Shown here: piece after piece, positions 6,696 through 60,916 of the stretch
How the letters are laid out: every line of letters begins with the position of its first letter
How positions within the stretch are numbered: the first letter of the stretch is position 1
Assembly: GCA_944389545.1 (NCBI GenBank)
Contig: CALXMT010000004.1
Coordinates: 8,201-72,200 of the forward strand
Source of the DNA: an uncultured Kiritimatiellota bacterium
GTDB taxonomy: Bacteria; Verrucomicrobiota; Kiritimatiellia; RFP12; DVOR01
Reading direction: 5' to 3'
Length of the DNA: 64,000 nt
Translations under genes and position numbers: made by a program
The notes under the pieces: generated by a model
Seen by the model: the letters and a program-made list of their open reading frames with translations, nothing else
Told to the model about the DNA's origin: nothing
The model's database searches: none

Positions 6696-6732
6696 TAAGG
6701 GCGCGCCTGCGCGCCCTTGGAAAGCAAAAAAC

Positions 6733-7500
6733 AGAGCGTGCAGGCGCAAAGCGCCAAACCTTCCACGTTTGCAGAACGCGCGACCGGCGAAGCCGTTCCC
6801 TGGCGGCGCCAGCCGCGTCCTATATGTCCTATGCGTCCTATACGTCCTACCGCAACGTGCTTTCCAATCAGCTAATCAGCCAATCAGCCGGGCGCTCCAT
6901 CGGAGCGCCCATGTCTTCGTGGATAGTCAGTCGAGCGGCGTGGTGGCGGTGCCGGTGAGGCGGCGGGTTTCGCCGTCGAAGGAGAGGCCGATGAGGTGGA
7001 CCTCCTTGCCGCTGTGACGATAGGGCTCGGCATAGCCGTTGGCCTTAAGCTTCGCTCGTCGCCCCGCAGGAGCGTTCCGTGGCCGTGGAAGGTTTGGCCT
7101 GCGGGGCTGACATAAAGAACACAAAGAACCACGAAGAGGCACGAAGGACGGCTCAAGTGCGAAGCCGATGGGCGGGAGGGAGCGATCAGTGGGCGTTTAG
7201 CCCGCAAAGCGACCGGCGTTAGCCCATCAGGTTTCGCGCGCACTGGCGTCCTTGCGGGAAAAGAAGGGTTGTCGATTTCCCCGGACACTACTGCAAGCGC
7301 TTCGCGTCCATAGAGGGGCGCCACCCCACACCCCGGCTGGCACGCCTGCGACGTGCCAGGTACGACGGATGATGCTTCCCGAAAAACGCCAGAAACGCAA
7401 GGGATGGGCACGGTAGTGAGGCCCGGAGGGCCGAACGGTGAAGTGCCCAGGCCCTTGCGTTCCTTCGTGTCTTCGTGGAAATTTCTCCGGACAGTATTGG
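6733..7500. repeat. Mosaic intergenic repeat array
   Basis: Contains the 'gcgtgcagg..aaaccttccacg' module, a TCCTATRYG 9-mer tandem, CCAATCAG units plus a GGGCGCTCC hairpin, 'cacgaag' tandems, and the 'cggtagtgag..gaacggtgaag..cccttgcg' module that also occurs at 21640-21710 and inverted at 32400-32460. Confidence 0.85.
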
Positions 7501-7550: not shown

Positions 7551-9110
7551 ATGTCCAAACGCCCTGTTTGCTTGATCATCCGCGACGGCTGGGGGATGAA
7601 TCCCCGTTTCGCCGGCAACTCCGTCTTCAATGCCAAGACCCCCGTCATCGACCGTCTGCGCGCGCGTTATCCGTGGTGCCGCATTGAGTGCTCGGGCGAG
7701 GAAGTGGGCCTGCCCGATGGCTACCAGGGCTCTTCCGAGGTGGGCCACCTGAACATGGGCGCGGGCCGCATCGTGGAGCAGGAGCTCAAGCGCATCGACG
7801 ATGGCCTCAAGAGCGGCGAGCTCTTCAAGAGCCCGAAGTGGGAGGCGCTCATCGCCAACTGGAAGGCCAACAACTCCCAGCTCCACCTCATGGGCCTGCT
7901 GCAGGACGAGGGCGTCCACGCCCACCAGGAGCACCTCTTCAAGATCATGCGCCGCGCCCGCCAGGAGTTCCCCGAGGGCCGCATCGTGGTCCATCCCTTC
8001 CTGGACGGCCGCGACACGCCCCCGCGCTCCACGCTGGAATACCTCGCCAAGCTCCAGGGCGTGATGACCGAGGTCGGCGGCTGCGTCATCGGCACGGCTA
8101 TGGGCCGCTACTACGCGATGGACCGCTCCAAGAACTGGGCGCTGACCTCCGAGGCCTTCGAGTGCCTGGTCGACGCCAAGGGCAAGCGCTTCGCCACCGT
8201 CGAGGAGGCCGTCAAGACCGCCTACGACACCGAGAAGACCCCCGACGGCGACCCGATGACCGATGAGTACATCCCCTGCTCCGTCATCGGCGATTACGCC
8301 GGCATCCAGGACGGCGACAGCGTGATGCACACCAACTATCGCCAGGATCGCGCCATCCAGCTGACCCAGGCCTTCGTGTGCGACGACTACGCTGGTGCGC
8401 GCCCCCGCCGCCCCAAGGTCGTCTACCTCGGCTTCACCCGCTACTGGGACGAGTTCAATGACTACCTCCTCGGCGCGATGGGCGGCGACGGCGCCATGGA
8501 TATGCTCCTGGGCGAGGTCGTCTCCAAGGCCGGCATCCGCCAGCTCCGCCTGGCCGAGACCCAGAAGTTCCGCCACGTCACCAGCTTCTTCAACGGCAAG
8601 AGCACCAAGCCCTACGAGGGCGAGGACCAGGTGGAAGTGCCCAGCCGCTTCGACCCCGCCACCTTCGCCTCGCACCCCGAGATGGAGGCCTACAACGTCA
8701 CCGACGAACTCCTCAAGCGCCTGGAGAACAACCCCTACGGCTTCATCGTGGTGAACTATGCCAACTGCGACATGGTCGGCCACACCGGCAACCTCGAGGC
8801 CGCCACCCGCGCCGTCGAGATCGTCGATGAGTGCATCGGCAAGGTGCTCCCCCGCCTGATGGAGCTCGACGCCCACGTCCTCATCACCGCCGACCACGGC
8901 AACGCCGAGCAGATGGTCGACTACGCCACCGGCATGCCCAAGACCTCCCACACCCTCAACAAGGTCGAGTGCATCTACGTGGCCAAGGACGCCGACCTGC
9001 GCACCATGCGCCCCGATGGCAAGCTCTCCGACATCGCCGTCACCTGCCTGGACCTCCTCGGCCTCGAGAAGCCCGTCCAGATGACCGCCGACGACCTCTT
9101 CGTCAAGTAA
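7551..9110 (+). CDS. gpmI: 2,3-bisphosphoglycerate-independent phosphoglycerate mutase
   Basis: 'LIIRDGWGMN...TPVIDRL', 'GLPDGYQGSSEVGHLNMGAGRIVEQ', 'NYANCDMVGHTGN' and 'ITADHGNAE' are the classical iPGM motifs. The start is taken at 'MSKRPVCL'. The upstream extension from 7353 runs through repeat DNA. Confidence 0.9.
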   Translation: MSKRPVCLIIRDGWGMNPRFAGNSVFNAKTPVIDRLRARYPWCRIECSGEEVGLPDGYQGSSEVGHLNMGAGRIVEQELKRIDDGLKSGELFKSPKWEALIANWKANNSQLHLMGLLQDEGVHAHQEHLFKIMRRARQEFPEGRIVVHPFLDGRDTPPRSTLEYLAKLQGVMTEVGGCVIGTAMGRYYAMDRSKNWALTSEAFECLVDAKGKRFATVEEAVKTAYDTEKTPDGDPMTDEYIPCSVIGDYAGIQDGDSVMHTNYRQDRAIQLTQAFVCDDYAGARPRRPKVVYLGFTRYWDEFNDYLLGAMGGDGAMDMLLGEVVSKAGIRQLRLAETQKFRHVTSFFNGKSTKPYEGEDQVEVPSRFDPATFASHPEMEAYNVTDELLKRLENNPYGFIVVNYANCDMVGHTGNLEAATRAVEIVDECIGKVLPRLMELDAHVLITADHGNAEQMVDYATGMPKTSHTLNKVECIYVAKDADLRTMRPDGKLSDIAVTCLDLLGLEKPVQMTADDLFVK

Positions 9111-9270
9111 CAAACAAGAGAACAGAGAACAGAGAACGGAGAACAGAGCGCGCGCAAGCGCGCGACGGGCGAATCCCAGCCCGACTGTTACTCCGTCGCC
9201 CCGGAGGGGCGCCTCTGTTTTCTGTTCTCCGTTCTCTGTTTTCTAGGGCGCGTTAGCGCCCTTCCCCTAA
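9111..9270. repeat. Inverted GAGAACR heptamer arrays flanking GC hairpins
   Basis: A forward array sits at 9118-9148 and a reverse array at 9212-9244. Between and after them are the hairpins CGCGCGC-AA-GCGCGCG, GCCCC-GGA-GGGGC and AGGGCGC-GTTA-GCGCCCT. Confidence 0.85.
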
Positions 9271-10928: not shown

Positions 10929-10956
10929 ACGCGACTTGCCCATCCGGACGGAAAAA

Positions 10957-10987
10957 GGCCCCACCTTCACGGTGGGGCCCTTTTTTT
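10957..10987 (+). terminator. Intrinsic terminator after folE
   Basis: Stem GGCCCCACC, loop TTCAC, stem GGTGGGGCC, followed by TTTTTTT. Confidence 0.75.
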
Positions 10988-11039
10988 GTATCCCCTCTCC
11001 CCCACCACCGCCCCCTGTTTCACCCCTCCTTCTAAACCC

Positions 11040-12340
11040 CCAGGCAACCCTGCTCGGCACGCCCATAAAAGGGCCTTTTTGAGACCCTATAGGGGTCGAC
11101 CTCGGACCACTAAGGGTTTCGACCCCGACCCCTATAGGGTCTCACTGCCGACCCCTATAGTGGTTGACCTCGGACCCCTATAGGTCGGTGATGAAAAAGT
11201 CAAAAGAGAAGCATAGCGTAAGGTGAATCCCTGAGTTCTCCGCTTTGAGATCTCTTTCAACATTCTCAAAAAGGGGCGAAAATTACCCCATCACGCCCAC
11301 TTTTTTACCTTTTTGCCTTCGTGAGTCCTGCTCGGCCTCCTTTTCTACATACATCATTATTCGTCTTTATGCCTATCGGCCACTTTTTCATCAGCGACCT
11401 ATAGGGTCTCAGAAAGCCCCCTTAAAGCTCCCTCCAAAAGCCCTCCCGCCCCCCGAAAAAGGGGGCAAATGGCCTCTCCATCTGCTATATAATAAGGTAA
11501 GGGCGGAGGGGCGCTTTCGCGCCCCGGAGAACAGAGCGTGCAGGCCCAAAGGGCCAAACCTTCCACGGCCACAGAAAACAGAGAACAGAGAGCGCCCCTG
11601 CGGGGCGACGGGCGGGGTGATGGAAGTGTGTGATGGGTTTGCCCTGCGGGGCTGACACGAAGGGGCACGAAGAACCACGAAGGCACACGAAGGAAGGCGA
11701 CGCTGGGGGCGGGCCGTGCGTGCGCACAAGGCGCACGTCCGGCCCGGGGGCCTGTAGGGGCATGGCGGGCTTCGCACGCCATGCTTTGGTTTTTGGGGAG
11801 TCCTCCGGCGTCAGCCCCGTCCTATATGTCCTATACGTCCTATGCGTCCTACCGCGATGCTTCCAATCAGCTAAGCTTCCAATCAGCTAATCAGCGGGCG
11901 CGTCAGCGCCCCTTGTCCTATGCGTCCTACCGCGCGTCCTTGGGCACGTCGCAGACGTGCCGGGGGTGCAGGGAGAACTTCTCCCTGCCGGGGCGTGGGG
12001 CAGCGCCCCACACCTTTCCAATCTGCACTCTCCTAATCAGCCAAATCCTTTGTGTCCTTCGTGTCCTTAGTGATTTCTAAAACAATCTGGCAGTCCTGCG
12101 TGCGCTAGTACGCCCTTAATCTGCAACAAATCTGCGTAATCTGCGGTTTCCCATTCTGGCAGTCTTTCTTCGTGTACCTTTGTGGTTCTTCGTGTCCTTC
12201 GTGTTTTCCCGAAAAACACACCAACTCTGTTCAGCGGCCTCATCCGTCGCGCGCTTGCCGCGCGTCTCTGTTTTCTGCTTTCTGTTTTCTGTTTTCTGCT
12301 TTCCGGGCGCATCGCCCGGAGAGCGATTTGCATTTTTTGG
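11040..12340. repeat. Largest mosaic intergenic repeat array (~1.3 kb)
   Basis: Contains palindrome units (CCCTATAGGG, CCACTATAGTGG), a TATATAAT-containing module, the 'gcgtgcagg..aaaccttccacgg' module, GAGAACR heptamers, 'cacgaagg' tandems, an inverted copy of the 85-nt hairpin-cluster element, TCCTATRYG 9-mers, CTGATTRG units and AATCTGCNN tandems. Confidence 0.9.
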
Positions 12341-12345
12341 GCAAA

Positions 12346-12354
12346 TGTTATAAC
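12346..12354 (+). promoter_or_regulatory. Candidate extended -10 (TGTTATAAC)
   Basis: Lies 23 nt upstream of the ATG at 12377, in the only AT-rich patch of this gap. Confidence 0.4.
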
Positions 12355-12376
12355 ATAAGAGCACAAGGTAAATAAG

Positions 12377-14343: not shown

Positions 14344-15400
14344 GGGCGGTAGGGGCGGCGTTGCCGCCCTGGAGAACGGAGCGTGCAGGCCCAAAGGGCC
14401 AAACCTTCCACGGCCATAGAGAACGGAGAACAGAACGCCCGCCAAGCGGGCGACAGGCGAAATAGTTGTACAACGAGAAAGCCAAACTTCCAAGCATCCA
14501 AGCTTCCAAACTTCCACTCTCCCCTGCACCCCCGGCACGTCTGCGACGTGCCATAACACGACGCGGTAGGACAAGGGGCGGTAGCAACGCCGCCCCGCTG
14601 ATTAGCTGATTAGCTGATGGGCTGATTGGAAAGCAACGCGGTAGGACATATAGGACCAATAGGACATATAGGACAGGGGGCGCTGACGCGCCCCGGAGAA
14701 CAGAGCGTGCAGCCCGAAGGGCAAACCTTCCACGGCCACGGAGAACGGAGCGTGCAGCGGCGAAGCCGCAAACCTTCCACGGCTACAGAACGCCCCTACG
14801 GGGCGACAAAGTGACGGATGGCCTCTCGTGGAAGATTAATCCTGCGGGGCTCCACCGGAGGACTTCCAAAAAACCAAAGCATGGCGTGCGAAGCCCGCCA
14901 TGCCCCTACAGGCCCTTCGGGCCGGACGTGCGCCTTTGCGCACGCACGGCCCGCCCCCTGCGTCGTGCTTAGCCGTGGAAGGTTTGTCGCTTCGCGCCTG
15001 CACGGTGATAGCCGCGCAGCGTTCGGTCTCATCGCCGCCAAGGGCGGCGGCCCGGGCTTCAACCTCTGTGGCTCCTCCAAGCCTCCAAGCCTCCAAACTT
15101 CTAAGCTTCCATTGTGCGTCCAGCCGGCGGTAGCCGGCCCCTAATCTGCCAAAATCGGCGTAATCGGCGGTTCCCTATTCTGGCAGTCCTGCTTCGTGTA
15201 CCTTCGTGGTTCTTCGTGTTCTTCGTGTCAGCCCCGCAGGGCAAACCTTCCACACTCTCCCAGCGGCTCCACCCGTCGCGCGCTTGTCGCGCGCTCTCTG
15301 TTCTCCGTGGCCGTGGAAGGTTTGGCCCTTTGGGCCTGCACGCTCTGTTTTCTGTTCTCTGGGGTGGCGCCAGCCACCCCATTTGACAGAGAGGGGCTGA
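14344..15400. repeat. Mosaic intergenic repeat array
   Basis: Uses the same module set. It includes an 85-nt hairpin-cluster copy (14874-14958) and a 147-bp unit (14968-15114) repeated at 51339-51485. Confidence 0.9.
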
Positions 15401-15412
15401 ATATGGTATTGT
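15383..15412 (+). promoter_or_regulatory. Candidate sigma-70-type promoter for the nusA operon
   Basis: TTGACA (15383-15388), an 18-nt spacer, then TGGTATTGT (15404-15412). It lies about 80 nt upstream of the nusA ATG. Confidence 0.5.
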
Positions 15413-16779: not shown

Positions 16780-19470
16780 ATGATGAGGGTTTCGGATTTC
16801 GCCAAGCAGGCGGGGCTTCCCGCGGGAATCGTCCTCTTCCAGGCCAAGGATTTGGGCTTGGAGGTCTACTCCACGCTCGCGAAGTTGGACGCGGACGAGG
16901 AATCGTCGCTGCGCGGGTGGGCCGAGGGGCTTTCCGCGCAGGACAAGCAGACGTTGATCGCCGACTATGAGGCCACGCGCAAGGCCCGCCGCGAGCAGGC
17001 GGAAGCCGTCCGCCGCGAGGAGGCCAAGCGCAACCGTGAGGGCGTCGAGGAACACCGCCGCATCGCCCTCGAGGCCGAGGCCGCGCGCGGCGAGAAGTCC
17101 GCCCCCGCGCCGAAACCGATTGCACCGAAACCCGCGTCTGAGGTGAAGCCCGAGGCCAAGTCTGAGCCGCAGGCCGAGGCCAAGCCCGCGCCGGAAGCCA
17201 AGCCCGCGCCCGAGGCGAAGGCGGAGGTCAAGGCAGAGGTCAAGCCTGACCCCAAGCCCGAGTCTAAGCCTGACCCCAAGGCCGAGGTCAAGCCCGCAGT
17301 GAAGCCGGAGCCCGCGAAGGCATCTGCGCCCAAGGCGACCTTGACGCCCACCAAGCCGACCCAGGCCCCCGCGCCGAAGGCCACGCTGACCCCCACGCCC
17401 AAGGCTACCCTTTCTCCCACCAAGCCGACGTTGACGCCCACCAAGCCCACGCTCACGCCCACGGCCGCCCCCTCGCGCCCCGTTTCCTTGGGTCTGTCTC
17501 CGACCAAGCCCGCGAAGGGTGCCGGCGACAAGGGCCGCCGTGACGACCGCGCCCCCAAGGGCCGCGAAGACCGTGCGCCGAAGGGCCGCCGTGACGACCG
17601 CGGCGCCCCCAAGGGCCGTCCGCAGGCCGCCGCCCCGGCGCGTCCCGCCGCCCCCGCGGCGACCGTCGAGGGCAAGACGCTTCAGATTCATGGGCCGATG
17701 ATCGTCAAGGATCTGGCTGAGCTGCTGGGGATGCGCCCCAACGAGCTGATCGTGGCCCTCATGGGCCTGAACGTGCTCGCCTCCATCAACCAGACCCTCG
17801 AGCCCGGCATCATTCAGAAGGTCGCCGAGGCCCGCGGCTTCACCGTCGAGGTCGAGGAGCGCACCAAGCGTTCCGCCGACCGCAAGCCGCAGCTGAAGAG
17901 CGAAGACGCCGACGACGAGATCCCCGAGGACAAGCCCGAGGACATGAAGCTCCGTCCGCCGGTGGTGACCTTCCTGGGCCACGTCGACCACGGCAAGACC
18001 ACGCTGATGGACTACATCCGCCACACGCACGTGGCGGCGGGCGAGGCCGGCGGCATCACCCAGCACATCGCGGCCTACACCATCCAGGTGGACCAGACCG
18101 ACGATGCCGGCAACAAGCGCCTCATCACCTTCGTGGACACCCCCGGCCACGCGGCCTTCGAGTCCATGCGTGCCCGCGGCGCCAACATCACCGACATCGC
18201 CGTCATCATCGTGGCGGCCGACGACGGCGTGATGCCGCAGACCCGCGAGGCCATCAAGCACGCCCGCAACGCCGGCGTCCAGATGCTCGTGGCCGTCACC
18301 AAGTGCGACAAGCCAGACGCCAACCCCATGCGCGTCTACCAGATGCTCCAGGCCGAGGGCCTCACCCCCAGCGCCTGGGGCGGCGACATCGAGTGCTGCG
18401 AAGTCTCCGGCGTCACCGGCCAGGGCGTGGACGATCTCCTTGAGACCATCCTCCTCCAGGCCGACGTCATGGAGTTGCAGGCCAACCCCAACCGCCGCGC
18501 CAACGGCGCCGTCATCGAGTCCCAGCTCGAGCAGGGTCTCGGTCCGACGGCCACCCTGCTGGTGAAGGGCGGCACGCTCCACGTGGGCGACGTCGTCCTC
18601 TGCGGCGAGTACTACGGCAAGGTCCGCGCCCTCATCGACGAGCGCGGCAAGCTCGTCAAGAGCGCCGGCCCCTCCATCGCCGTCAAGTGCACGGGCCTCT
18701 CCGGCGTGCCCGAGGCCGGCTCCGAGTTCCGCGTGATGCTCAACGAGAAGCGCGCCCGCGAACTCGCCGAGAAGACCGCCGAGCAGAACAAGCTCGAGGC
18801 CCTCTCCGCCGCCCAGAACTCCGCCATGGCCGATTGGACCAAGATCCTCGCCGGCGGCGAAAAGGCCCAGCTCGATGTCATCATCAAGGGCGACACCCAG
18901 GGCACGGCCGAGGCCGTCGTCGAGTGCCTCAAGGGCATCGAGAGCAAGAAGGTCTCCCTCAAGATTCTTTACTTCGGCGTCGGTTCCGTCACCGCGGCGG
19001 ATGTCCAGCGCGCCAAGGGCGCCCTCATCGTCGGCTTCGGCGTGAACTGCGAGCCCGGCGTCCAGGCCATGGCCCGCCAGAACGGTGTGCGCATCAACAC
19101 CTTCCGCATCATCTACGAGCTCATCGAGCACGTCAAGCGTTGCATGCTCGATCTCATCCCGCCCGAGTACAAGGAGGTCGTCCGCGGCCACGCCGAGGTT
19201 CGTCAGGTCTTCGACATCAGCAAGCTCGGCAAGATCGCCGGCTGCCAGATGCTCGATGGCACCCTCCGCTTCAAGGGCAAGTTCCGCATCTTCCGCGGCA
19301 AGCACCAGATCTACGATGGCCCCATCGCCACCATGAAGCACTTCAAGGACGACGTCAAGGAAATCGCCCCCGCCCAGGAGTGCGGCCTCGGCTTCGGCTC
19401 CTTCGAGGCCTTCCAGGAAGGCGACATCGTCGAGTGCTACGAGATGGAAGAGCTCCCCAAGACCCTCTGA
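16780..19470 (+). CDS. infB: Translation initiation factor IF-2
   Basis: The GTPase core is '[16 protein letters not shown]', 'DTPGHAAF' and 'VAVTKCDK', followed by a conserved C-terminal domain. The N-terminus is a low-complexity A/E/K/P-rich region. The start is taken at '[10 protein letters not shown]', 5 nt after the nusA stop. Confidence 0.92.
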
Positions 19471-19875: not shown

Positions 19876-20609
19876 ACGACGTCTTCCCTGACCCCGATGG
19901 CATCCTCCCCGTGGACAAGCCCGCGGGCATGCCTTCGCACGTCATCGTGACGACCCTCCGCCGCAAGTTCGGCTTTGCCAAGGTCGGCCACGGCGGCACC
20001 CTTGACCCCGACGCCACCGGCCTCCTCCTCATCCTCTTGGGCAAGGGCACCAAGATTTCCGACCGCGTCATGGGCGGCGACAAGACCTATCGCGGCACCA
20101 TCCGCTTCGGCGTCGCCACCACCACCCAGGACCGCCTCGGCGACGTCCTCTCCGAGCACCCCACCGACGGCCTCACCCAGGCCGCCGTCGAGGACGCCAT
20201 CGCCCGCGACTTCCTCGGCGACCTCTTCCAGAAGCCGCCCATGTACTCCGCCGTCAAGATCGCCGGCCAGCCCCTCTACAAGATGGCCGTCCGCGGCGAG
20301 GAGTGCGAGCGCGAGGAACGCTTCGTCCACATCTATGCCTTCAAGATCACGGACTTCCGCCCCGCCGCCGAAAAGGCCGAGGCCGACTTCGAGGTTCGCT
20401 GCTCCAAAGGCACCTACGTCCGCACCCTCGCCAACGACCTCGGCGCGGCCCTCGGTTGCGGCGCCCACCTCTGCGCCCTCCGCCGCACCGCCTCCGGCAA
20501 GGTCACGCTCGACCGCGCCACCCCCTTCGCCGACCTCCTCGAGATGACCCGCCCGCAGATCGAGCGCCTCGTCATCCCCAGCTCCGACTATCTCTCCGGC
20601 AACTTCTGA
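19872..20609 (+). CDS. truB: tRNA pseudouridine(55) synthase
   Basis: 'GILPVDKPAGMPSHVIV', 'KVGHGGTLDPDATGLLLILLGKGTK' and 'PPMYSAVKIAGQPLY' match TruB. The GTG start overlaps the rbfA stop. Confidence 0.88.
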   Translation: MNDVFPDPDGILPVDKPAGMPSHVIVTTLRRKFGFAKVGHGGTLDPDATGLLLILLGKGTKISDRVMGGDKTYRGTIRFGVATTTQDRLGDVLSEHPTDGLTQAAVEDAIARDFLGDLFQKPPMYSAVKIAGQPLYKMAVRGEECEREERFVHIYAFKITDFRPAAEKAEADFEVRCSKGTYVRTLANDLGAALGCGAHLCALRRTASGKVTLDRATPFADLLEMTRPQIERLVIPSSDYLSGNF

Positions 20610-21514
20610 TGGAACCCGCCCCCGTCGAGACCTTGGACGCGCTTCCCTCCGGCGCCGTCGTCGCAGTCGGCACCTTCGATGGCGTCCACCTCGGCCACCG
20701 CGCCCTCCTGCGTGCCATGGCCGACTTTGCCGCCGCCGCAGGCCGCCCCGCCTGGGTCCTCACCTTCGCCGGCTCTCCCCTCTCCCTCCTTGACCCCGCG
20801 CACGCGCCCGGACTCTTGATGGACCGCGAGTCCATCCTCCGCCAGCTTCGCCTCGCCGTCCCCGACGCGCACGTTGTCGTCCAGCCCTTCGACGCCGCCT
20901 TTGCGGCCCTGCCCGCCGAGGACTTCGCCGCCGCCCTCCGCGGCGCGACCGTCTTCTGCGGCGAGGACTGGCGCTTCGGTGCCGGCGCCCAGGGCAACCC
21001 CGACTTCCTCCGCGCCCGCGGCTTCGATGTCCACGTCGTCCCCTACGCCCACTGGCGCGGCGAACGCGTCTCCTCCACCCGTATCCGCGGCGCCCTCGCC
21101 GCCGGCGCGCTCGACGAGGCCGCCGCCATGCTGGGCCGTCCCTGGGCCTTCACCGGCCGCGTCGTCCATGGCCGCGGCCTCGCCGGCCCCACCTTCGGCG
21201 TCCCCACCGCCAACCTCCCTTACGTCGGCCGCGCCGGCGAGCGCATGGCTCCCCTCGCACGCGGCGTCTACCGCGCCGAGGCCATCCTCCACGAAATCTC
21301 TTGGCCCGCCCTCGTCAACTTCGGTGTCGCCCCCAGTGTCAAAGGCGAACCCGAGCCGCTCTTCGAGGCCCACCTCCTCGGCGCCGAACTCGACCTCTAC
21401 GACGCCAACCTCACCCTCTCCTTCGACGCGCCCCTCATCCGTCCCGAGCGCAAGTTCCCCTCCCTCGACGCCCTCCACGCCCAAATCCACGCCGACCTCG
21501 AGGCCTGCCAATGA
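20609..21514 (+). CDS. ribF: Bifunctional riboflavin kinase / FMN adenylyltransferase
   Basis: 'VAVGTFDGVHLGHRALL' is the FAD-synthetase motif. 'GRVVHGRGLAGPTFGVPTANL' marks the kinase domain. The ATG overlaps the truB stop (TGATG). Confidence 0.85.
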   Translation: MEPAPVETLDALPSGAVVAVGTFDGVHLGHRALLRAMADFAAAAGRPAWVLTFAGSPLSLLDPAHAPGLLMDRESILRQLRLAVPDAHVVVQPFDAAFAALPAEDFAAALRGATVFCGEDWRFGAGAQGNPDFLRARGFDVHVVPYAHWRGERVSSTRIRGALAAGALDEAAAMLGRPWAFTGRVVHGRGLAGPTFGVPTANLPYVGRAGERMAPLARGVYRAEAILHEISWPALVNFGVAPSVKGEPEPLFEAHLLGAELDLYDANLTLSFDAPLIRPERKFPSLDALHAQIHADLEACQ

Positions 21515-21713
21515 GCCTCATCCTCCACGAAGACACAAAAGCGCGGGAATGGACGTGCGCTTCACCGGTCGCCCTTGTGGGTCTCCCTACCGCGCACGCC
21601 ATCCCAGCCCGATTGGGTGTTTTCGGGAACCGCCAGGCCGCGCAAGGGGCGGACGCGGTAGTGAGCGCAGCGAACGGTGAAGCATCCGAGCCCTTGCGCA
21701 CCTTCGTGTCTTC
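21515..21713. repeat. Short mosaic repeat array
   Basis: Contains the hairpin AAGCGC..GCGCTT and the 'cggtagtgag..gaacggtgaag..cccttgcg..ccttcgtgtcttcgtgga' module shared with 7420-7480. Confidence 0.75.
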
Positions 21714-22746: not shown

Positions 22747-23640
22747 GGAAGCTTGGAAGTTTAGAGGCTTGGAGGCTTGGAGAGGCCTCACGTTGCGCGG
22801 CTATCACGAAAGGGGCGCTGACGCGCCCCGGAGAACGGAGCGTGCAGGCCCGGAGGGCCAAACCTTCCACGGCCACAGAACGCCCGACAAGCGGGCGACA
22901 GGCGAAATAGTTGTACAACGAGAAAGCCAAACTTCTAAACCTCTAAGCTTCCAAACTTCCACTTTCCCCTGCACCCTCGGCACGTCTGCGATGTGCCACA
23001 AGGACGGCGCAGTAGGACCAATAGGACATATAGGACCTATAGGACGGCGGCTGACGCCGCTTTGAACAACGGCTTCGCCTGTCGCCCCGCAGGGGCGCTC
23101 CTGTATCTCCTGCATCTCCTGCATCTCCTGAACACACCGTGCCCAGGCCGTGGGCGCGTCAGCGCCCCTTCCCCAAAGCATGGCGTGCGAAGCCCGCCAT
23201 GCCCCTACAGGCCCTTCGGGCCGGACGTGCGCCTTTAGTGGAAGTTTGGAAGTTTAGAGGTTTGGAGGCTTGGCTTTTTCAGCGGCTTCACCCGTCGCGC
23301 GCTTGCCGCGCGCTCTGTTCTCCGTTCTCCGTTCTCTGTTCTCCGGGGCGCTCCAGCGTCCCTTGGTCCTTCGTGTCCTTTGTGATTTAAAAACACACTG
23401 GCAGTCAGCGTGCGCTAGCACGCCCTTAATCTGCAACAAATCTGCGCAATCTGCGGTTCCCCACACTGGCAGTCCTTCTTCGTGTACCTTCGTGGTTCTT
23501 CGTGGTCCTTCGTGTCAGCCCCGCAGGGCAAACCTTCCACTTTCTCCCAGCGGCTCCACCCGTCGCGCGCTTGCCGCGCGCTCTCTGTTCTCTGTTCTCC
23601 GTTCTCTGTTCTCCGGGGCGGCTTTGCCGCCCCTCGCCCC
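22747..23640. repeat. Mosaic intergenic repeat array between convergent azlD and rpoD
   Basis: Contains GGAAGYTT/GGAGGCTT octamers, the GGGGCGC-TGAC-GCGCCCC hairpin, TAGGACNNA 9-mers, a truncated 85-nt element (23173-23236), GAGAACR heptamers, AATCTGC tandems and CTTCGTG tandems. Confidence 0.9.
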
Positions 23641-25737
23641 TCACCGTTCGTCGAGGAAGCCGCGGAGTTTCTTGGTGCGCGAAGGGTGGCGGAGCTTGCG
23701 CAGGGCTTTGGCCTCGATTTGGCGGATGCGCTCGCGCGTGACCTTGAACGCCCTGCCGACCTCTTCGAGGGTGAGCGCGACCCCGTCCGTGAGACCGTAA
23801 CGCATGTCGATCACCTCGCGTTCGCGCTGGTTGAGGGAGTAGAGCACCTCGCGCAGACGCTCTCTGCGGAGGGCGAAGGCGGCGGCGTCTTCGGGGCGCT
23901 CGATGCTTTTGTCCTCGATGAAGTCGCCGAAGTGGGCGTCTTCGCCGTCGCCGACGGGGCTTTGCAGGGAGATGGTCTGCTGGGCCATGCGATAGACGTG
24001 GCGGACGTAGTCGACGGTCTCGTTCATCTCCTCGGCGATCTCCTCGGGGGTGGGCTCACGACCGAGCTCCTGGAGCAGCTTTTTCTGCACCCGCAGGTGT
24101 TTGTTGATGACCTCGGTCATGTGCACGGGGATGCGGATGGTGCGGGACTGGTCGGCGATGGCGCGGGTGGCCGCCTGGCGGATCCACCAGGTGGCGTAGG
24201 TGGAGAACTTGTAGCCGCGCTTGTAGTCGAACTTCTCGACGGCCTTCATGAGCCCGGTGTTGCCCTCTTGGATGAGGTCGAGGAGGCTGAGGCCGTGGTT
24301 CATGAACTGTTTGACGATGGAGACGACGAGGCGGAGGTTCGCCTCGATCATCTCCTTGCGGGCCTGGCCGAGCAAGTAAAGCGCCTGGCGAATCGCCTGG
24401 AATTTCTCCATGAAGAGGTCGGCCGGCATGCCGAGGGCCTGTTCGGCCTCGCCGCGGGCGGCTTCGGCCTTGGCGACACGCTGGGCCTTGGTCTTGCTCT
24501 TGCCGGCCTTCTTGGCCCGCTTGAGGGCATCGACGGCTCGGGTGTAGGGCTTGTAGCAACGCTCTTCGGCGTAGCCGCAGATGGTCTCCAGCATCGTCTG
24601 CTTGAAGTTGAGCGAGACGTATTTGTCGCGCAGTTCTTGGCACAGGGCCTCGATTTGCCGGTCGGCCTCGCCCAGGGCGGCGGTGTCCGCGGGATTGAGT
24701 CGGGCGCGGGCCATGTAGGCCTCGGCCATCCGGTCGCCCAGACGGTCGAGCGCCTCCTGCTCCGGATGCATGGCCGCAACGTAGTCGTCGCGGAGCTTGT
24801 CGGCCTTGTCGACCACGCGGTCGAAACGCTCACGGGTGGCTTCCAAGCCTCTCAGGACTTCGGCGTAGAGGTGCGCGGCCACGGGCAACTGGTTGAAGAC
24901 CGTGATGATGACGTTTTCGCTGGCCTCGATGCGCTGGCAGATGCGCACCTCGTCTTCGCGCTCCAACAGGGGCACTCGCCCCATCTGGTGCAGGTACATG
25001 CGGATGGGTTCGTTGACGTAGTCCGCGCGCCCGGCGGTGGAGGCTTCGTCGCGCTCCTCCATCGCGTCCTCGAAATCTTCCTCCGACACCACCTTCACGT
25101 TCATCGCGCCCAACAGGTTGAAGTAGCGCTCGATGTCCGTGTCTTTGATGACCTCCTGCGGAAGGTACTCGTTCACCTGCTTGATGGAGAGCACGCCGCT
25201 CTGTTTCTCGGAGAGGGCGACCAACTGGCGCAGACGCTCGCGGCACTCCTCACGCTCCTCGAGCGCCTCCAAATCCTCCAGGGCGCGCGCCTTTTGGGCC
25301 TCCTCCTCGGATTCATTGAAGACCGCGCGCAGGTCGGAGCCCTCGCGCAGACCGCCGAGGGCGTCGTCGCCGTCGTCCGGCGCCTCCTCTTCGTCATCGA
25401 AGACCGTCTCCTGGGTGCGAGAGCCCTTCAGCACGCCCGCATGCCGGGCACGGTCGTAGAGCACGCCGCCCACGTTTTCCGCGTTGGCGTACTCATTCTT
25501 CAGGAGCTCCTTCTCGATGTCCTCCATCAAGTTGGCGACGGCTTCCTCCCCCTCTTCATTGGCCTTGGCGATTTCGGCTTTGCTCTTGCGACCACGTTTT
25601 TTCTTGGGCTTGGCGGCATTGTTCAGACCGTCCGCCGCCAGAGCCTCGGCCTCCGCCAAGGTCATGGGGCCATCTTCTTCGATGGCTTGGCGCGTGGAGG
25701 GGATGGATTCGCTTCGCTTCGTGGTCTTCGTAGCCAT
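23641..25737 (-). CDS. rpoD: Primary RNA polymerase sigma factor (sigma-70)
   Basis: Region 2 is '[58 protein letters not shown]'. Region 4 is '[31 protein letters not shown]'. The N-terminus is long and acidic. The start is taken at 'MATKTTKRS'. Confidence 0.92.
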
Positions 25738-25871
25738 AGGTTGACAGGCGCTCCTTTGGGTTCCGGGTGGTGTCATCACAGAAAATGACAAAGCGCCCAT
25801 AATTATATACCCATTGTCTCACTTTCTCTCTCTTTTCTTAAAAATTATCGATGCTCCCGAGAAAAATATGA

Positions 25872-25978
25872 ACCGCAAAGACGGTCTTGCGTGGAAACCC
25901 GGCAGGCTCCATCGCTCCCGTTGGTCGCGCCGCCCTAGGGATTTCCACGCTATCGCGCCCCTGAAGGGGCGCTCAAAG
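25872..25978 (+). repeat. Left copy of the 107-bp direct repeat bracketing the methyltransferase/helicase island
   Basis: Aligns base-for-base with 31753-31859, with 5 mismatches by eye. It contains GCGTGGAAA...TTTCCACGC and GCGCCCC-TGAA-GGGGCGC inverted repeats. Confidence 0.9.
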
Positions 25979-26238
25979 AAGTCCGATACACACTCCTACA
26001 TTCAATTGTTAAAGATCAATCGCGGTGTAATGCTTAGTACCACGCCTCCTTGCCAAAGGCCTGTCATTTGCCCTCCCTCTAAATCCCCACAACTTCTTCA
26101 TTCCCATACCTATTCGCCATCTCCAAAATCTGTCACTGGCAGAGGGCGTTCCCTTCTGCCCATCGTCCGTCTTTGCGGTCCCCATTTCCACGGATACTCC
26201 TGTGGCATTGCTGGGGGAGGGAGTTGGCGGGGGAGTTT

Positions 26239-26247
26239 TGCTATACT
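26239..26247 (+). promoter_or_regulatory. Candidate extended -10 (TGCTATACT) for the island operon
   Basis: This is the same 9-mer as upstream of gpmI. It lies about 200 nt upstream of the methyltransferase ATG. Confidence 0.4.
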
Positions 26248-26301
26248 ATGGGCACGCCACGGGTGAGCCGTGGTACCACTTACGCTTAGCGTAACAAAGT
26301 T

Positions 26302-26424
26302 GCTTCTATAGAAACCTGAGAAACTTCTTGTGAGTAAGCAACGTGTTAGGCGAAGCGTGCCGTTATTGGCACGCTTCCCTTTTGCGTGTTTACTCACGGG
26401 CTTTCTCAGGGCCTCTATAGAAGC
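26302..26424 (+). other. Nested ~120-nt palindrome, either a structured leader RNA or a DNA cruciform
   Basis: Outer arms: GCTTCTATAGAAACCTGAGAAA pairing with TTTCTCAGGGCCTCTATAGAAGC. Middle arms: GTGAGTAA pairing with TTACTCAC. Inner arms: GAAGCGTGCC-GTTATT-GGCACGCTTC. Confidence 0.8.
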
Positions 26425-26447
26425 ACGCAAAGGGAGCGTGCTTTTTT
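26423..26447 (+). terminator. Terminator-like hairpin abutting the methyltransferase start codon
   Basis: Stem GCACGC, loop AAAGGGA, stem GCGTGC, then TTTTTT, then the ATG at 26448. The only Shine-Dalgarno-like sequence (AGGGAG) sits in the loop. Confidence 0.55.
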
Positions 26448-28436
26448 ATGTCCAATGCGGACGAACGAGAAGAAATAGTCCAAGAGAGGCCGGTCCTCTG
26501 CGACCCGATTCGGGAACTGCAGGAGGCCGCGCCGCAGGTGTTGTCGATTCTGCTGAAGGATCGCACGGAGAATCGTAATATTCTCTTTGCCACCGATGCC
26601 TATGCCGAGAAGCCGGGGTGCGGCCCGCAGGATTCGATGAAGGTGGAGCATTTCCGTGGGGGCAACGCGCTCTCCATTCGCCCTCGTGCGGCCAAAAGCG
26701 CCCTCGAGCAACGCGAGCGCACGCGGCAGATGGCGGAGGTGTTCACGCCCACCTGGCTCTGCAACGTCATGAACAACGTGTTGGACGAAGTGTGGTTCGG
26801 CCAGTCGGAGGTCTTCACGGTCATCGAAAGGGCGCAGACGTGGTCGGCCACGGAGCAGGTCTCCTTTGAGCCGGCGGAACGGTGGCGGGACTATGTGGCC
26901 TCGCGACGGATGGAAATCACCTGCGGCGAGGCGCCCTTCCTCGCATCGCGTTACGACACCACCACGGGCGAACCCATCCTGCCCCTCAAGCGGCGCATTG
27001 GCCTGCTGGACCGCAAGCTCCGCGTGGTGGATGAAAACGCCGCCACGCAGGAGGAATGGGCCGAGTCGGTGCGCCTGGCCTTCCGGAGCATCTATGGCTA
27101 TGAGTTCCAAGGCGACAGCCTCCTCCTCGCGCGCGTAAACCTCTTTATGACCTTTTGGGACCACCATCTGGCGCGCTGGGGCGAACCGCCATCCGAACCC
27201 TTTTCCAAGGAAATCGCCGAGACCATCAGTTGGAACCTCTGGCAAATGGATGGCTTCACCAACCGCCCGCCCTTCACCACCGAACTGGAAGCGCAAGACG
27301 ACCTCTTCGCCGCCCCTGACCCAAACGCTTCTGATCCCTGCCGTATTCGTATCGGCACCAATCCCATTTCTGTGAACAACCTGCAAGGAGACAAGACCAT
27401 GAAGTTCGATTTCATCATCGGCAACCCGCCCTACCAAGTCGAAGGAGAAGGGAAGGGCCGAAACTTTGCCGCCCCCATGTATCACTATTTTATGGACGCG
27501 GCTTATGCACTCTCGGATAAGGTGTTGCTCATCCATCCCGCCCGCTTCCTTTTTGACAATGGGGAGACGCCTGCTGCGTGGAACAAGAAGATGCTTGCCG
27601 ACAAACATTTCAAGGTGGTTGATTACAGTCGTGCAGCCTCTACCTTTTTCCCCGGTAAAATTGTAATCAAAGGTGGCGTTGCCATCACCTATCGTGATGC
27701 CACCAAAGATTTTGGCGCCATTGGGATGTTTATGACTGATGACGAACTGAGGTCTATTAAGCAGAAAGTGTGCGACCATCCCTCGTTTGAAAGCATTATC
27801 AGTATTGTTTTCACGGCTTATGCCTACCATTTCACGGAGGCGTTGTATGTCGACCATCCGGAATTGAAGGGACGCATGAGTAAGGGGCACGACTATGACC
27901 TTAAATCAAACGTGCTGACCCGTTTGCCGGAAATCTTCTTCTCGGAAAAGCCGGAGGATGGGGAGGAATATATTCAAGTTTACGGCAAGAGTGGAAAGGC
28001 GCGCGTGCTTTGTTGGGTTCGTAAAGTGTACGTGAACGAACCGGACAATCTCGCTTTTTGGAAAGTTTTCCTTCCTGGGGCGAATGGTGGTACAAGCTTT
28101 GGTGAAAGACTTGCGGACCCGACCGTCTTTGGACCGTTTGTCGGCGCAACGGAAACTTTTGCGAGCGTTGGTCGATTCAAGACTCAAGCAGAAGCTGAGG
28201 CTTGTCTGAAATACGTCAAGACGAAGTTTGTCCGTGCGATGCGCGATATTCTTAAGGTCACGCAGAACGGTGCTCGAGATGTTTGGGCCTTGGTTCCCCT
28301 GCAGGATTTCACGGAGAAGTCGGATATTGATTGGAGCAAGAGTGTGGCGGAGATTGACCGTCAGCTGTATGTGAAGTATGGCCTGGCGGCGGAAGAGGTG
28401 AAGTTCATTGAGAGCAAAGTGAAGGAGATGCTGTGA
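26448..28436 (+). CDS. N6-adenine DNA methyltransferase (gamma-class, Eco57I-like)
   Basis: 662 aa. Motifs: 'AEVFTPTWLCNVMNN', 'EITCGEAPFLASRYD' (SAM-binding-like) and 'FDFIIGNPPYQ' (catalytic NPPY). A long C-terminal region is a plausible target-recognition domain. Confidence 0.85.
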   Translation: MSNADEREEIVQERPVLCDPIRELQEAAPQVLSILLKDRTENRNILFATDAYAEKPGCGPQDSMKVEHFRGGNALSIRPRAAKSALEQRERTRQMAEVFTPTWLCNVMNNVLDEVWFGQSEVFTVIERAQTWSATEQVSFEPAERWRDYVASRRMEITCGEAPFLASRYDTTTGEPILPLKRRIGLLDRKLRVVDENAATQEEWAESVRLAFRSIYGYEFQGDSLLLARVNLFMTFWDHHLARWGEPPSEPFSKEIAETISWNLWQMDGFTNRPPFTTELEAQDDLFAAPDPNASDPCRIRIGTNPISVNNLQGDKTMKFDFIIGNPPYQVEGEGKGRNFAAPMYHYFMDAAYALSDKVLLIHPARFLFDNGETPAAWNKKMLADKHFKVVDYSRAASTFFPGKIVIKGGVAITYRDATKDFGAIGMFMTDDELRSIKQKVCDHPSFESIISIVFTAYAYHFTEALYVDHPELKGRMSKGHDYDLKSNVLTRLPEIFFSEKPEDGEEYIQVYGKSGKARVLCWVRKVYVNEPDNLAFWKVFLPGANGGTSFGERLADPTVFGPFVGATETFASVGRFKTQAEAEACLKYVKTKFVRAMRDILKVTQNGARDVWALVPLQDFTEKSDIDWSKSVAEIDRQLYVKYGLAAEEVKFIESKVKEML

Positions 28437-31400: not shown

Positions 31401-31720
31401 TCGACAACCCCGACCACACCTTCGCCGACCTCTACGTGAAGTCGGGGCTCTACCTCGCGGAAATCGCCAAGCGCCTCTTCCGTAGCGCGGCGATGAAGGC
31501 GCGTTTCCCGGAGGATAGTGCACGGCTGGAGCACATCTTTACGCGTCAACTCTACGCCATGGCCCCCACGAAGATTATCCATCGCATTGCGGTGGCCTAC
31601 TTGTTGGACTTCAATCCCGCCCTGCGCGAGAAGGCGAAGGCCCACATCGTCTGCGCCGATGCCGCTGCCGCCGCCCAGTCCGGCACGTTGGATAAACTGG
31701 TGGAAGAATCCTTCGGCTGA
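28433..31720 (+). CDS. Large SF2 (DEAH) helicase with an N-terminal GIY-YIG/T5orf172-like domain and a C-terminal degenerate methyltransferase-like segment; putative restriction/defence partner
   Basis: 1095 aa. The N-terminus 'HIYAYQTPG...GWTKIGEA...ETRIKQQ...REWFQV' is T5orf172-like. Helicase motifs are 'NAKPRFGKTLAAY', 'LLIIDEAHEG' and 'LHLSGTPF'. The C-terminus 'NQIFTPREVVVRMVDTL...FADLYVKSGLYLAEI' looks like methyltransferase motifs X and I but lacks the glycine-rich loop. The start overlaps the methyltransferase stop. Confidence 0.75.
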   Translation: MMKTPDLQSYAVVEPHIYAYQTPGVLKHEGWTKIGEARTQTVETRIKQQTSTPGLDWNLSWARPAWFDNGQTMRDKAFHRYLVTQGIPQERDATTKKKREWFQVEPDVALRHFETFAHDGEGPNPEQQEYWLRREQALAVAQTKAHFEAGGEKFLWNAKPRFGKTLAAYDLVRQMGLRKVLILTNRPAVADGWVRDFARFIGWQTGLLFVSENKALKSQFPKQVLLWQDYQNRLMTMEEEPYGFIAFESLQGLKGSRYFDGDHDKLKWMAELEWDLLIIDEAHEGVETERTDIAIDQLRHKHRLHLSGTPFKQLARGDFLPEETFTWSYVDEQETKAAWTGEENNPYEHLPSLKMFTYRLSEMTEAEVRRGYNEDIPYAFDLMEFFKTRANGTFVYEEKVRNFLRALTTQEKYPFSTPELREELRHTIWVLNRVASVKALEKLLKEEGSPFADYEVVIAAGDGRSGDEADEDDRPISLNALGRVRNAIASGKPTITLSVGQLTVGVTVPEWTGILMLNECKSPAAYFQATFRVQNPREFERDHRLYIKREAYVFDFNPTRTLILFEQLANETVPVLETEGESPVERREKKIRKLLNFYPVIGEDEGGQMVPLDVAKVLSIPRKLKCQEVVRHGFMSNLLLCNINRIFSNLKIYEGIINAMTGAKDFAGKKKPMEDLELTEHTLDDEGNVVVPEEKVLGTAKDLFGEKIYGVEIALPETRVGEEDMTTAKFMEAMIAQVKTEIVDKATQDLKPAARNAIERTVKREMEGIETAIAHECKLAVAEATLKHATALEATSDEAEREDLERRHQEEVAAIKADYGEKMVTATQQYVQTLPVEVTRQALTAQEEAVKKADEDAMHERLRGFARAIPSFIMAYGDKHLRLANFDQYVEEDVFQDVTGITLEAFRFLRDGGDYAGCHAEGGIFNEQIFDESIQEFLRKKEALADYFDKAHDEDIFDYIPPQRTNQIFTPREVVVRMVDTLERENPGCFDNPDHTFADLYVKSGLYLAEIAKRLFRSAAMKARFPEDSARLEHIFTRQLYAMAPTKIIHRIAVAYLLDFNPALREKAKAHIVCADAAAAAQSGTLDKLVEESFG

Positions 31721-31752: not shown

Positions 31753-31859
31753 ACCGCGAAGACGGTCTTGCGTGGAAACCCGGCGGGCTCCATCGCTCCC
31801 ATCGGTCGCGCCGCCCTTGGGATTTCCACGCTATCGCGCCCCTGAAGGGGCGCTCAAAG
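31753..31859 (+). repeat. Right copy of the 107-bp direct repeat
   Basis: Matches 25872-25978. Confidence 0.9.
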
Positions 31860-33988: not shown

Positions 33989-33992
<4 letters not shown>

Positions 33993-51289: not shown

Positions 51290-51664
51290 CCTCCTACTCC
51301 ACGTCAAGCCGCCCGCGCAGGGTCGGGTTCTTCGTGTTCTTAGCCGTGGAAGGTTTGGCCCTTTGGGCCTGCACGGTGATAGCCGCGCAGCGTTCGGTCT
51401 CATCGCCGCCAGGGGCGGCGGCCCGGGCTTCAACCTCTGTGGCTCCTCCAAGCCTCCAAGCTTCCAAACTTCTAAACTTCCATTGCGCAGTCAGCGTGCG
51501 CTAGCACGCCCTTAATCTGCTCAAAATCTGCGCAATCTGCGGTTCCCCACGCTGGCAGTCTTTTCAGTAGCCGCTTTCATCGTCGCCGGAGGCGACAGCC
51601 CGGGCCTCAACCTCTGGGGCTCCTCCAAGCCTCCAAACCTCTAAGCTTCCAAACTTCCCTCTCC
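51290..51664. repeat. Mosaic intergenic repeat array
   Basis: Includes the 147-bp unit 51339-51485 (a copy of 14968-15114) and a related partial copy at about 51565-51660. Confidence 0.9.
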
Positions 51665-53919: not shown

Positions 53920-54144
<225 letters not shown>

Positions 54145-59582: not shown

Positions 59583-59640
59583 CGTATCCTCCTTTCTTCT
59601 TTCAGTGTACCAAAACGGCACACCAGAAGCAATAACAGGG

Positions 59641-60135: not shown

Positions 60136-60171
60136 CTGCCTCACCTGTCGCGCGCTGGTCAAATCTAGAAG

Positions 60172-60844: not shown

Positions 60845-60916
60845 CTTTTCGATTTGGCGCCTGTCGCGCGCTTCGTTCTCCGTTTTCCGTTCTCTGGGGC
60901 GGTGAGGGCGGGCCTG

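Follow-up and report, generated by a model that had tools for sequence, protein, structure and literature searches.

Mosaic repeat arrays in the intergenic gaps of an uncultured gut bacterium of the PVC group

What fills the long gaps between the genes of a 64-kb stretch of DNA from an uncultured Kiritimatiellota bacterium, and how did it come to be there? The stretch (positions 8,201 to 72,200 of contig CALXMT010000004.1, assembly GCA_944389545.1; hereafter the window) is chromosomal, has 66% G+C and carries housekeeping genes: a GT4 glycosyltransferase, iPGM, an M24 peptidase, folE, NIF3, nusA-infB-rbfA-truB-ribF, azlCD, rpoD, ppx-ppk and an Orn/Lys/Arg decarboxylase. An initial annotation had flagged the gap at 11040-12340 and proposed that it and eleven other gaps are mosaics of one set of short modules. 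This proved true of eleven of the twelve; the other, 21515-21713, holds a 73-aa open reading frame (ORF) found by gene callers and contains only a two-unit CTTCGTG-like dimer. We consider it probable that the gaps are lineage-specific intergenic mosaic repeat arrays of the same kind as neisserial intergenic mosaic elements (NIMEs) and bacterial interspersed mosaic elements (BIMEs), with a module set of their own, spread and reshuffled by hairpin-directed insertion, slippage and recombination.

The host is an uncultured gut bacterium of the Planctomycetes-Verrucomicrobia-Chlamydiae (PVC) group. The ENA metagenome contig L002 (BRZ_AI NODE_445) matches the window at 100% identity over 21.3 kb, and contigs of the GenBank metagenome-assembled genome (MAG) 'uncultured Kiritimatiellaeota bacterium BRZ_KQ__bin80' match it at 93-96% identity. 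The nearest named relative with shared repeats is Candidatus Spyradenecus faecavium, a chicken-gut MAG whose genus NCBI taxonomy places in Lentisphaerota. About 10% of the genome was inspected. The strains L001, L003 and L004, with which the window is compared below, have an identical NusA protein and flanking-gene DNA that is 98.5-99.5% identical.

The modules and their arrangement

All six tandem units, four hairpins and the composite sequence listed in the initial annotation were recovered where it had placed them, using Tandem Repeats Finder (TRF), a repeat finder and a token map. A tally over ~440 kb gave seven families of short units of 7-10 nt: A (GAGAACR), B (CTGATTRG), C (TCCTATRYG), D (CTTCGTGKN(N)), E (AATCTGCNN), F (GGARGYTT) and G (ATCTCCTGY). 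Besides these there is family H, a 23-nt palindrome-core repeat. The 9-nt G unit and the H repeat are additions to the earlier list, as are a ~90-nt triple-hairpin module (K) and a promoter-like box. The hairpins have stems of 5-9 bp and loops of 3-5 nt, and include GGGGCGC-TGAC-GCGCCCC, CGCGCG-cttgc-CGCGCG, CGCCCC-tgc-GGGGCG, GCGTGC-gcta-GCACGC and GCCGGC-ggta-GCCGGC.

These modules far exceed their frequency in shuffled sequence. The window has 22 matches to GAGAACRGAGAACR (0.04 expected), 12 to GGGGCGCN4GCGCCCC (0.26 expected) and 12 to CGTGCAG-N10-13-AAACCTTCCAC (0.00 expected), and 315 kb of related genome and window together hold 238 arrays of at least three units, against none after shuffling. 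When the window and ~290 kb of related genome were searched, 5.7 of 9.9 kb of gap DNA recurred at least twice elsewhere. This lower bound, ~9% of the window, replaces the earlier figure of ~7 kb. The modules are indeed intergenic, and the unique remainder of the gaps is mostly promoter or terminator DNA adjoining genes. As the annotation had also suspected, arrays give rise to spurious ORFs: in some strains, gene callers place ORFs without Pfam matches within them. An origin of the tandem units as accumulated target-site duplications is ruled out, as the same few units occur genome-wide with fixed copy number.

Because the GC-rich hairpins alternate with lower-GC tandem arrays, G+C in 24-nt windows oscillates between 0.29 and 0.83. 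The number of units per array hardly varies: F units come in fours in 43 of 46 arrays, D units in fours in 31 of 42 and E units in threes in 60 of 66, while A arrays have three or four copies. By unit length, 8-nt and 9-10-nt units come four times, 9-nt units three times and 7-nt units three to four times, and the arrays are therefore 27-38 nt long.

Longer modules are assembled from the same parts. The E module (~68 nt) consists of CTGGCAGTCC, a hairpin, three AATCTGC units and GGTTYCCC, and the K module contains three hairpins. An end module of ~190 nt runs through four D units, a hairpin, AAACCTTCCAC, a hairpin, an A array and a hairpin. It occurs at both array ends and in both orientations, and many arrays therefore open with a hairpin and A+ and close with A- and a hairpin. 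With A+ on the left and A- on the right, many arrays are large imperfect palindromes, across which the purine fraction of the plus strand falls from ~0.65 to ~0.32. The minimal form is the 'A-bracket' at 9111-9262, which starts 8 nt past the iPGM stop codon and comprises (GAGAACR)x4, a hairpin, a core, a hairpin, (YGTTCTC)x4 and a hairpin. Its predicted fold is a single long stem (-95 kcal/mol, z = -9.7).

The arrays start at stop codons or a few bases away and end just upstream of extended -10 promoters such as that of nusA (TGGTATTGT). Promoters adjoining arrays at 12325-12360, 15383-15412 and 60912-60925 share a TGnTATAAT-like extended -10 (TGTTATAAC, TGGTATTGT and TGGTATAAT, respectively), which may be the usual promoter form in this lineage. 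At 57508-57525, an array hairpin has the TAA stop codon of ppk in its loop, and PPK ends in other residues than it does in L046 and L047, so that arrays can rewrite the 3' ends of genes.

Turnover between strains and the 34-nt element

Fixed copy numbers and palindromic layout go beyond the initial annotation, as do strong polymorphism between strains and the variable presence of a 34-nt element. Across four strains, the gap between azlD and rpoD measures 84, 84, 894 and 2082 bp, and that between folE and GFO, anchors included, 754, 1013, 1276 and 1507 bp. Among near-identical strains the arrays are dispensable beside rpoD, nusA and folE. Alignments between strains reveal the gain or loss of a single 7- or 8-nt unit. 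The array at 14344-15381 varies between strains by four 34-nt elements and by a ~300-bp block; a direct repeat made up of a hairpin, an A array and a 34-nt element stands on both sides of this block, which is the signature of unequal recombination. An 806-bp block at 22830-23635 is absent from L001 and L004, where the empty site is one GGGGCGC-N4-GCGCCCC hairpin. The loop of this hairpin is inverted between two strains (TGAC versus GTCA), as expected of template switching at an extruded hairpin, and the hairpins appear to be active in vivo. The interior of the A-bracket is swapped for another cassette in L001 and L003, with both A arms kept, and most of one array is replaced by a different module set between strains.

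The composite sequence noted earlier is a discrete 34-nt unit, consisting of CGTGCAG, a 5-bp stem, a 3-nt purine loop, the return stem and AAACCTTCCACGGCY. The 103 copies found represent 38 sequence variants with invariant arms and a covarying stem, in which 92.6% of cells are paired and 17 cells have changed on both sides. None of 500 shuffles reached this level of pairing, and in slid controls 19-39% was paired. Copies on the plus strand of the window lie at 6737-6770 (of the CGTGCAG-stem-loop-stem-CAAACCTTCCACGGCY type, ending in GTTT) and, within A arrays, at 11537-11570, 14382-14415 and 22841-22874. Two elements of the 34-nt type lie 45 nt apart in one A array at 14706-14784, also on the plus strand, and L003 has a single A in place of each. 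The minus-strand copies are at 14971-15004 (in the context GGCTATCAC / AAG), 15309-15342 (within an A- array), 51342-51375 (at the edge of a D array), 57556-57589 and 59686-59719 (both within B arrays) and 59869-59902 (within a D array).

Whether in an A, B, D or F array, in an E module or at one further junction, the element has constant boundaries. The same boundaries in unrelated contexts require real insertion events. Compared with the window, two copies are missing from one A array of L003 and one extra copy is present in an E module. Three clean orthologous pairs of empty and occupied sites were found, besides paralogous ones, and in both kinds of comparison the empty form has exactly one A in the element's place, with an A also next to it (GAG-A-AC, GGG-A-ACC, CAC-A-AAG). 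The element has neither a target duplication nor inverted ends, and replaces a single A. This points to a single-strand or hairpin mechanism, with an enzyme encoded elsewhere, or to template switching during replication.

We next consider how widespread the modules are. They are genome-wide elements, as the initial annotation had supposed, and not confined to the window. A scan with one genome per species placed the 34-nt composite on at least 40 stretches; among the matches listed, almost all were on the many contigs of BRZ_KQ__bin80. Further stretches came from two other species-level genomes, BRZ_KF__bin114 and Ca. S. faecavium, both of which also have A, D, E and F arrays, so that related genomes do share the modules. 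One match in an actinobacterium was due to chance. Ten matches to the element in the JGI metagenome collection were likewise all chance, lacking hairpin and arrays, and the viral collection (IMG/VR) had none.

At the syntenic nusA loci of more distant relatives, sharing is patchy. A relative with 79% NusA identity has only H-like 22-nt repeats, and one with 74% has F arrays, H-like repeats and other mosaic modules of a different vocabulary, while no modules were present at these loci in relatives with 76%, 70% and 67% identity. Mosaic gaps as such thus predate most of the module families now present. The relative with 74% NusA identity (L060) also has alternating purine-pyrimidine, GC-rich stretches of ~130 nt (GCGCGTACGCGTGTGC...) in its mosaic gaps, at 17390-17520 and 2830-2945. 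These have Z-DNA-forming potential and adjoin 22-nt palindrome-core repeats.

The arrays along the window and the genes they border

The first array of the window is small (1637-1690) and combines the hairpin AGGCGCTCC-gat-GGAGCGCCT with GCTGATTR-type units (TRF: 1658-1689, period 8, 3.9 copies). A mosaic of hairpins, 34-nt element and C, B and D arrays occupies 6697-7480, in the divergent gap between a TPR gene (minus strand) and iPGM (plus strand). Within this gap, but outside the obvious arrays, 6884-7250 recurs elsewhere in the genome and overlaps a 175-aa minus-strand ORF; possibly it is another long module, or else a pseudogene fragment in repeated copies.

In the flagged gap there are H repeats on the plus strand (11062-11184; CCCTATAGGG cores; TRF and repeat family D6), which resume at 11398-11420 beyond an inserted miniature inverted-repeat transposable element (MITE). 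The promoter-like P box CTGCTATATAATAAGGTAAGGGCG at 11482-11505 (plus strand) reads into the array; further copies are at 32277-32300 and on L027 and L040. The mosaic proper (11508-12320) is purine-rich on the left and pyrimidine-rich on the right. Its first half runs hairpin, A+ with the 34-nt element, hairpin, D-, triple-hairpin K-, C+ and B-, and its second half hairpins, D+, E module, D+, hairpin, A- and hairpin.

Further downstream, 14344-15381 extends from NIF3 to the nusA promoter and has five 34-nt elements, and 22747-23633 separates the convergent genes azlD and rpoD. The borders of a 19-kb island are formed by 31836-32706 on the left (H repeats at 32099-32222, the P box at 32277-32300, B, K and D arrays, an E hairpin and a 10-nt array) and 51290-51664 on the right (34-nt element, F-, E module, F-). 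A half-mosaic upstream of ppx (54185-54430) contains hairpins, D+ arrays of three and four units and an A- array of three. The mosaic after ppk (57508-57922) begins with the hairpin that includes the ppk stop codon, and the one upstream of a cation-efflux gene (59638-60117) resumes at 60858-60901, with A- and a hairpin, beyond an inserted element with terminal inverted repeats (TIRs). In another apparent gap, at 53920-54090, gene callers put a 56-aa ferredoxin (Fer4) gene, of a kind that ORF-length filters easily miss.

Two conventional TIR elements have inserted in arrays and are not themselves mosaic modules. The MITE at 11185-11397 is 213 bp long, with 16-bp TIRs (TCGGTGATGAAAAAGT) and an 8-bp target duplication (CCTATAGG); it lies within H repeats and is absent from the same site in L004. 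The second, a non-autonomous element of ~700 bp at ~60158-60860, has TIRs of 19-21 bp (AAATCKARAAGTAATCGCG) and internal TAATCGCG repeats. It lies in an array hairpin and is absent from L045-L047.

Arrays also border genes that vary between strains. An M78-peptidase/HTH gene and a 187-aa gene (57950-59582) are absent from two strains, and this cassette is flanked by a mosaic repeat of 203 nt (57510-57712 and 59640-59842, 96% identical, family D10). The 19-kb segment (~32.35-51.45 kb), with arrays at both borders, is absent from two strains whose decarboxylase protein is identical (compare L046 and L047). It encodes a 376-aa protein with a 9-nt collagen-like DNA periodicity, a C10 peptidase, a Ser/Thr kinase, proteins without assignment and a giant LRR/CarboxypepD_reg surface-type protein of 2412 aa; a 3598-aa variant occurs in another strain. 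The 3' end of this giant gene recurs over ~500 bp at a distance of 9.5 kb, beside the C10 peptidase gene (33989-34695 versus 43563-44077, 94-96% identical); the copy may be a silent cassette for the C-terminus or what remains of a duplication.

The locus adjoining rpoD (25666-31720) is a variable defence-type slot, which in the window holds restriction-modification genes: an Eco57I-type methylase and a ResIII/T5orf172 helicase, with G+C down to 53-60%. In L046 and L047 the slot has diverged alleles (77-96% identical), and in L001 a 1629-aa helicase-type gene with SACS, AAA_11 and AAA_12 domains (19964-21284). On L020 (1375-8000; also L013, L023 and L006), a 532-aa gene stands in three to four tandem copies that are 88-96% identical, each followed by a hairpin, an A array and the 34-nt element, and diverged copies occur elsewhere. 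Judged by eye, we take its product to resemble an AAA-ATPase and PD-(D/E)XK family that is expanded in gut Bacteroidota. A search of the loci for multi-copy DNA resembling an insertion sequence (IS) turned up only this tandem family and a P-loop paralogue, and no IS. A tRNA and tmRNA scan was negative, and we detected neither a regular 28-37 nt repeat/spacer periodicity of CRISPR type (TRF and repeat output) nor cas domains among the window ORFs.

Known systems, competing explanations and meaning

A search of the literature on repeats in Kiritimatiellae found nothing relevant, and in kind the arrays come closest to the NIMEs of Neisseria. According to the 2007 FAM18 paper, GC-rich inverted repeats there alternate with lower-GC repeat families in a GC wave, repeat units are flanked by the 20-bp inverted repeat dRS3 (ATTCCCN8GGGAAT), syntenic arrays are dynamic, with opportunistic insertions and an association with variable genes, and such arrays had not been seen outside Neisseria (PMC1797815). 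The present arrays share the alternation and its GC wave, the variation of syntenic arrays in length and content between strains, the insertion of other mobile elements and the bordering of variable genes, here the island with the giant surface protein. They differ in their separators, which are true hairpins with loops of 3-5 nt rather than 6-8-6 sites, in their filler, which is fixed-copy tandem arrays of 7-10 nt units rather than RS families of 50-150 bp, and in the phylum of their host, which is of the PVC group. The dRS3 pattern that defines NIMEs had no match in the window with up to one mismatch allowed. We know of no phage or recombinase acting on these arrays as others do on dRS3.

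The initial annotation had called the gaps BIME-like. The resemblance holds, as BIMEs are likewise extragenic, dispersed, high-copy mosaics of palindromic units with a few other motifs, with conserved hairpin structure and possible effects on transcript ends (PMC3116915). Membership does not: the repetitive extragenic palindromic (REP) sequences of BIMEs are palindromic units of 35-40 nt with a GTAG foot, whereas the hairpin stems here are 5-9 bp, the 34-nt element has CGTGCAG 5' of a 5-bp stem, Y and Z units do not alternate regularly, the load is ~9% of the window and short-unit tandem arrays are the main filler. The gene for the cognate REP-associated tyrosine transposase (RAYT), a Y1 HUH enzyme, usually has REPs on its flanks; no RAYT was found in ~440 kb with IS200 TnpA and E. 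coli RayT seeds, a weak test.

Other likenesses are partial. Short tandemly repeated repetitive (STRR) sequences of cyanobacteria consist of heptamers repeated 3-8 times in tandem between genes, and small dispersed repeats (SDR) are hairpin-forming repeats of tens of nucleotides, present at only some orthologous sites, without target duplication and often inside other repeats. The tandem units resemble the former and the 34-nt element the latter, whereas sequences and phylum are unrelated, and the seven fixed-copy families and the 23-nt repeat are here joined with hairpins in palindromic mosaics. The cyanobacterial heptamers and SDR were reportedly treated by Elhai et al. in 2008 (Genome Res 18:1484). 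MITEs come to mind because of the two insertions within arrays and the inverted ends of the A-bracket. However, the mosaic modules and the 34-nt element lack target duplications, the 34-nt element lacks TIRs, and the 'TIR' of the A-bracket is a tandem heptamer array, for which we know of no matching transposase. Palindrome elements derived from IS200/IS605 share with the 34-nt element a hairpin and the absence of TIRs and target duplications; the latter has one hairpin rather than two subterminal ones and only N^A-A as target rather than a fixed tetra- or pentanucleotide beside which it inserts, and no TnpA was found in ~440 kb with the IS200 seed.

We propose that the mosaics would grow and change by three processes. 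One would be structure-directed insertion of very small hairpin elements, of which the 34-nt element is the clearest, another slippage by one repeat unit, and a third homologous recombination and gene conversion among dispersed module copies, by which blocks or whole interiors may be deleted, duplicated or swapped. The arrays would serve as preferred landing and crossover sites, so that MITEs and strain-variable gene cassettes would gather in and between them, and the hairpins probably act on nucleic-acid structure. At both array ends, an inner GC hairpin and the pyrimidine-rich (YGTTCTC)n array that follows it resemble, by their sequence, a weak outward-facing terminator. It is therefore likely that the arrays would insulate the transcription units on either side, yet they are dispensable at any one site. 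Canonical intrinsic terminators they are not, as their hairpins lack the proper T-run found in the folE terminator.

Several observations weigh against this account. No transposase or recombinase family was matched by the window ORFs in Pfam, as the initial annotation had noted of transposases, and no enzyme able to move the hairpin elements was found in the roughly one tenth of the genome inspected; with seeds of IS200 TnpA and E. coli RayT, no Y1 transposase match was obtained in ~440 kb. Where an ORF has arrays on either side, it is an ordinary gene or lacks a Pfam match. All four copies of the 34-nt element in E modules have a GGTGC-type stem, so that the stem variant tracks its context, and recent presence or absence may therefore reflect gene conversion between paralogous modules. 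Each difference between an empty and an occupied site may be a gain or a loss. The folE terminator (10957-10979) with its T-run looks different from the array hairpins. Finally, variation within arrays is biased towards transitions at set positions (transitions to transversions 143:24 in F, 160:43 in A and 39:9 in D arrays), which together with fixed copy number looks more like constraint than junk, and leaves room for protein-binding or RNA-pairing constraint. A general transition-only, deamination-like signature was rejected, as E arrays and the 34-nt element do not fit it.

A REP/RAYT-type or IS200/IS605-derived system would account for some of these features. The hairpins, and the 34-nt element especially, would then be REP-like sequences, and a domesticated Y1 HUH transposase, with its gene at another place in the genome, would cut and paste them in single-stranded form; the mosaics would be its accumulated products. 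An extragenic, high-copy single hairpin of ~34 nt, with invariant flanking bases, a covarying stem and neither target duplication nor inverted ends, speaks for such a system. We nevertheless find this explanation rather doubtful, because the GTAG-type foot is missing, no Y1 transposase was found in the window or the ~440 kb of related sequence (a weak test), and REPs are not known either to replace a base or to lie within short tandem arrays.

Alternatively, the tandem arrays could be binding arrays for oligomeric DNA-binding proteins of nucleoid, partition-like or regulatory type, with hairpins as spacers, and thus cis-acting chromosomal or regulatory elements rather than selfish DNA. Copy numbers held tightly at three or four, position-specific variants kept by individual units, the transition bias, the promoters abutted by arrays and the resemblance of the 23-nt palindrome-core repeats to operator arrays would all be consistent with this. 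It is unlikely, given that whole arrays are present, absent or replaced beside rpoD, nusA and folE in 99% identical strains, that seven 7-10 nt families and a 23-nt repeat would need several proteins, and that relatives with 67-79% identical NusA lack most families.

Transcription of the arrays from a promoter module of their own, yielding structured non-coding RNAs with hairpins and single-stranded, purine-rich, GGA-containing repeats, possibly acting like protein sponges, is a further and quite unlikely explanation. A conserved box, TATATAATAAGGTARGGGCG, follows operator-like H repeats and a hairpin and reads directly into a hairpin and A array at no fewer than four independent sites. By its sequence it looks like a portable promoter. 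In addition, stems covary with G-U-compatible intermediates, the reversed K module reads as a hairpin followed by TTTGGTTTTT, and GGA is present on the purine-rich strand in five of the seven short-unit families. Against RNA products stand the absence of the box from most arrays, the unconserved order and orientation of modules downstream of it and the dispensability of arrays between strains. Rfam 15 had no match at gathering score; relaxing the threshold to E <= 1 yielded just three weak ones, none of which supports an RNA family in the arrays: a sub-threshold suhB/mmgR match at 10931-10994, in the folE terminator region outside the arrays, and miRNA models at 8611-8683 (a coding gene) and 11080-11144 (H repeats). 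A CsrA seed had no match in the sample, which at ~10% of the genome is uninformative.

An assembly or chimeric artefact of collapsed or duplicated reads, considered because the window comes from a short-read metagenome assembly, where repeats are error-prone, has a negligible probability, since the same module order over hundreds of bases was recovered across independent samples, projects and assemblers (ERZ24773288, ERZ16268042, ERZ28594863 and the GenBank MAGs CALXOF01, CALXSE01 and DVOR01), flanks are colinear, contig coverage is 141x and differences are clean indels at module boundaries.

The explanation we favour is therefore that of lineage-specific mosaic arrays reshuffled by insertion, slippage and recombination. 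On this reading the arrays act as a hot spot for structural variation, and their distinctive features are the short tandem arrays of fixed length, the palindromic layout and a 34-nt element that replaces a single base. A bolder proposal, which we offer only tentatively and do not expect to hold in full, is that the 34-nt element is a working, ultra-small mobile element that replaces one A by a hairpin- or single-strand-directed mechanism not yet described. The mosaics would then form a NIME-like system for cassette exchange, in which recombination takes place at the hairpins and the arrays are spacers of defined physical properties. Through this system, uncultured gut PVC bacteria would gain and lose gene cassettes for defence, surface proteins and regulation.

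In practical terms, such arrays break short-read assemblies, yield spurious ORF calls in MAG annotation and could serve for strain typing. The species is present in roughly 100 public samples (96 index blocks for NusA), and the many near-identical strains in public metagenomes amount to a natural experiment for measuring how arrays turn over, how small a unit of mobile DNA can be and how cassettes are exchanged through arrays. The 34-nt element is an unusually small candidate for a mobile unit. Intergenic mosaic arrays have been studied in few lineages, and an independent and structurally cleaner case in a gut PVC bacterium indicates that this architecture evolved more than once.

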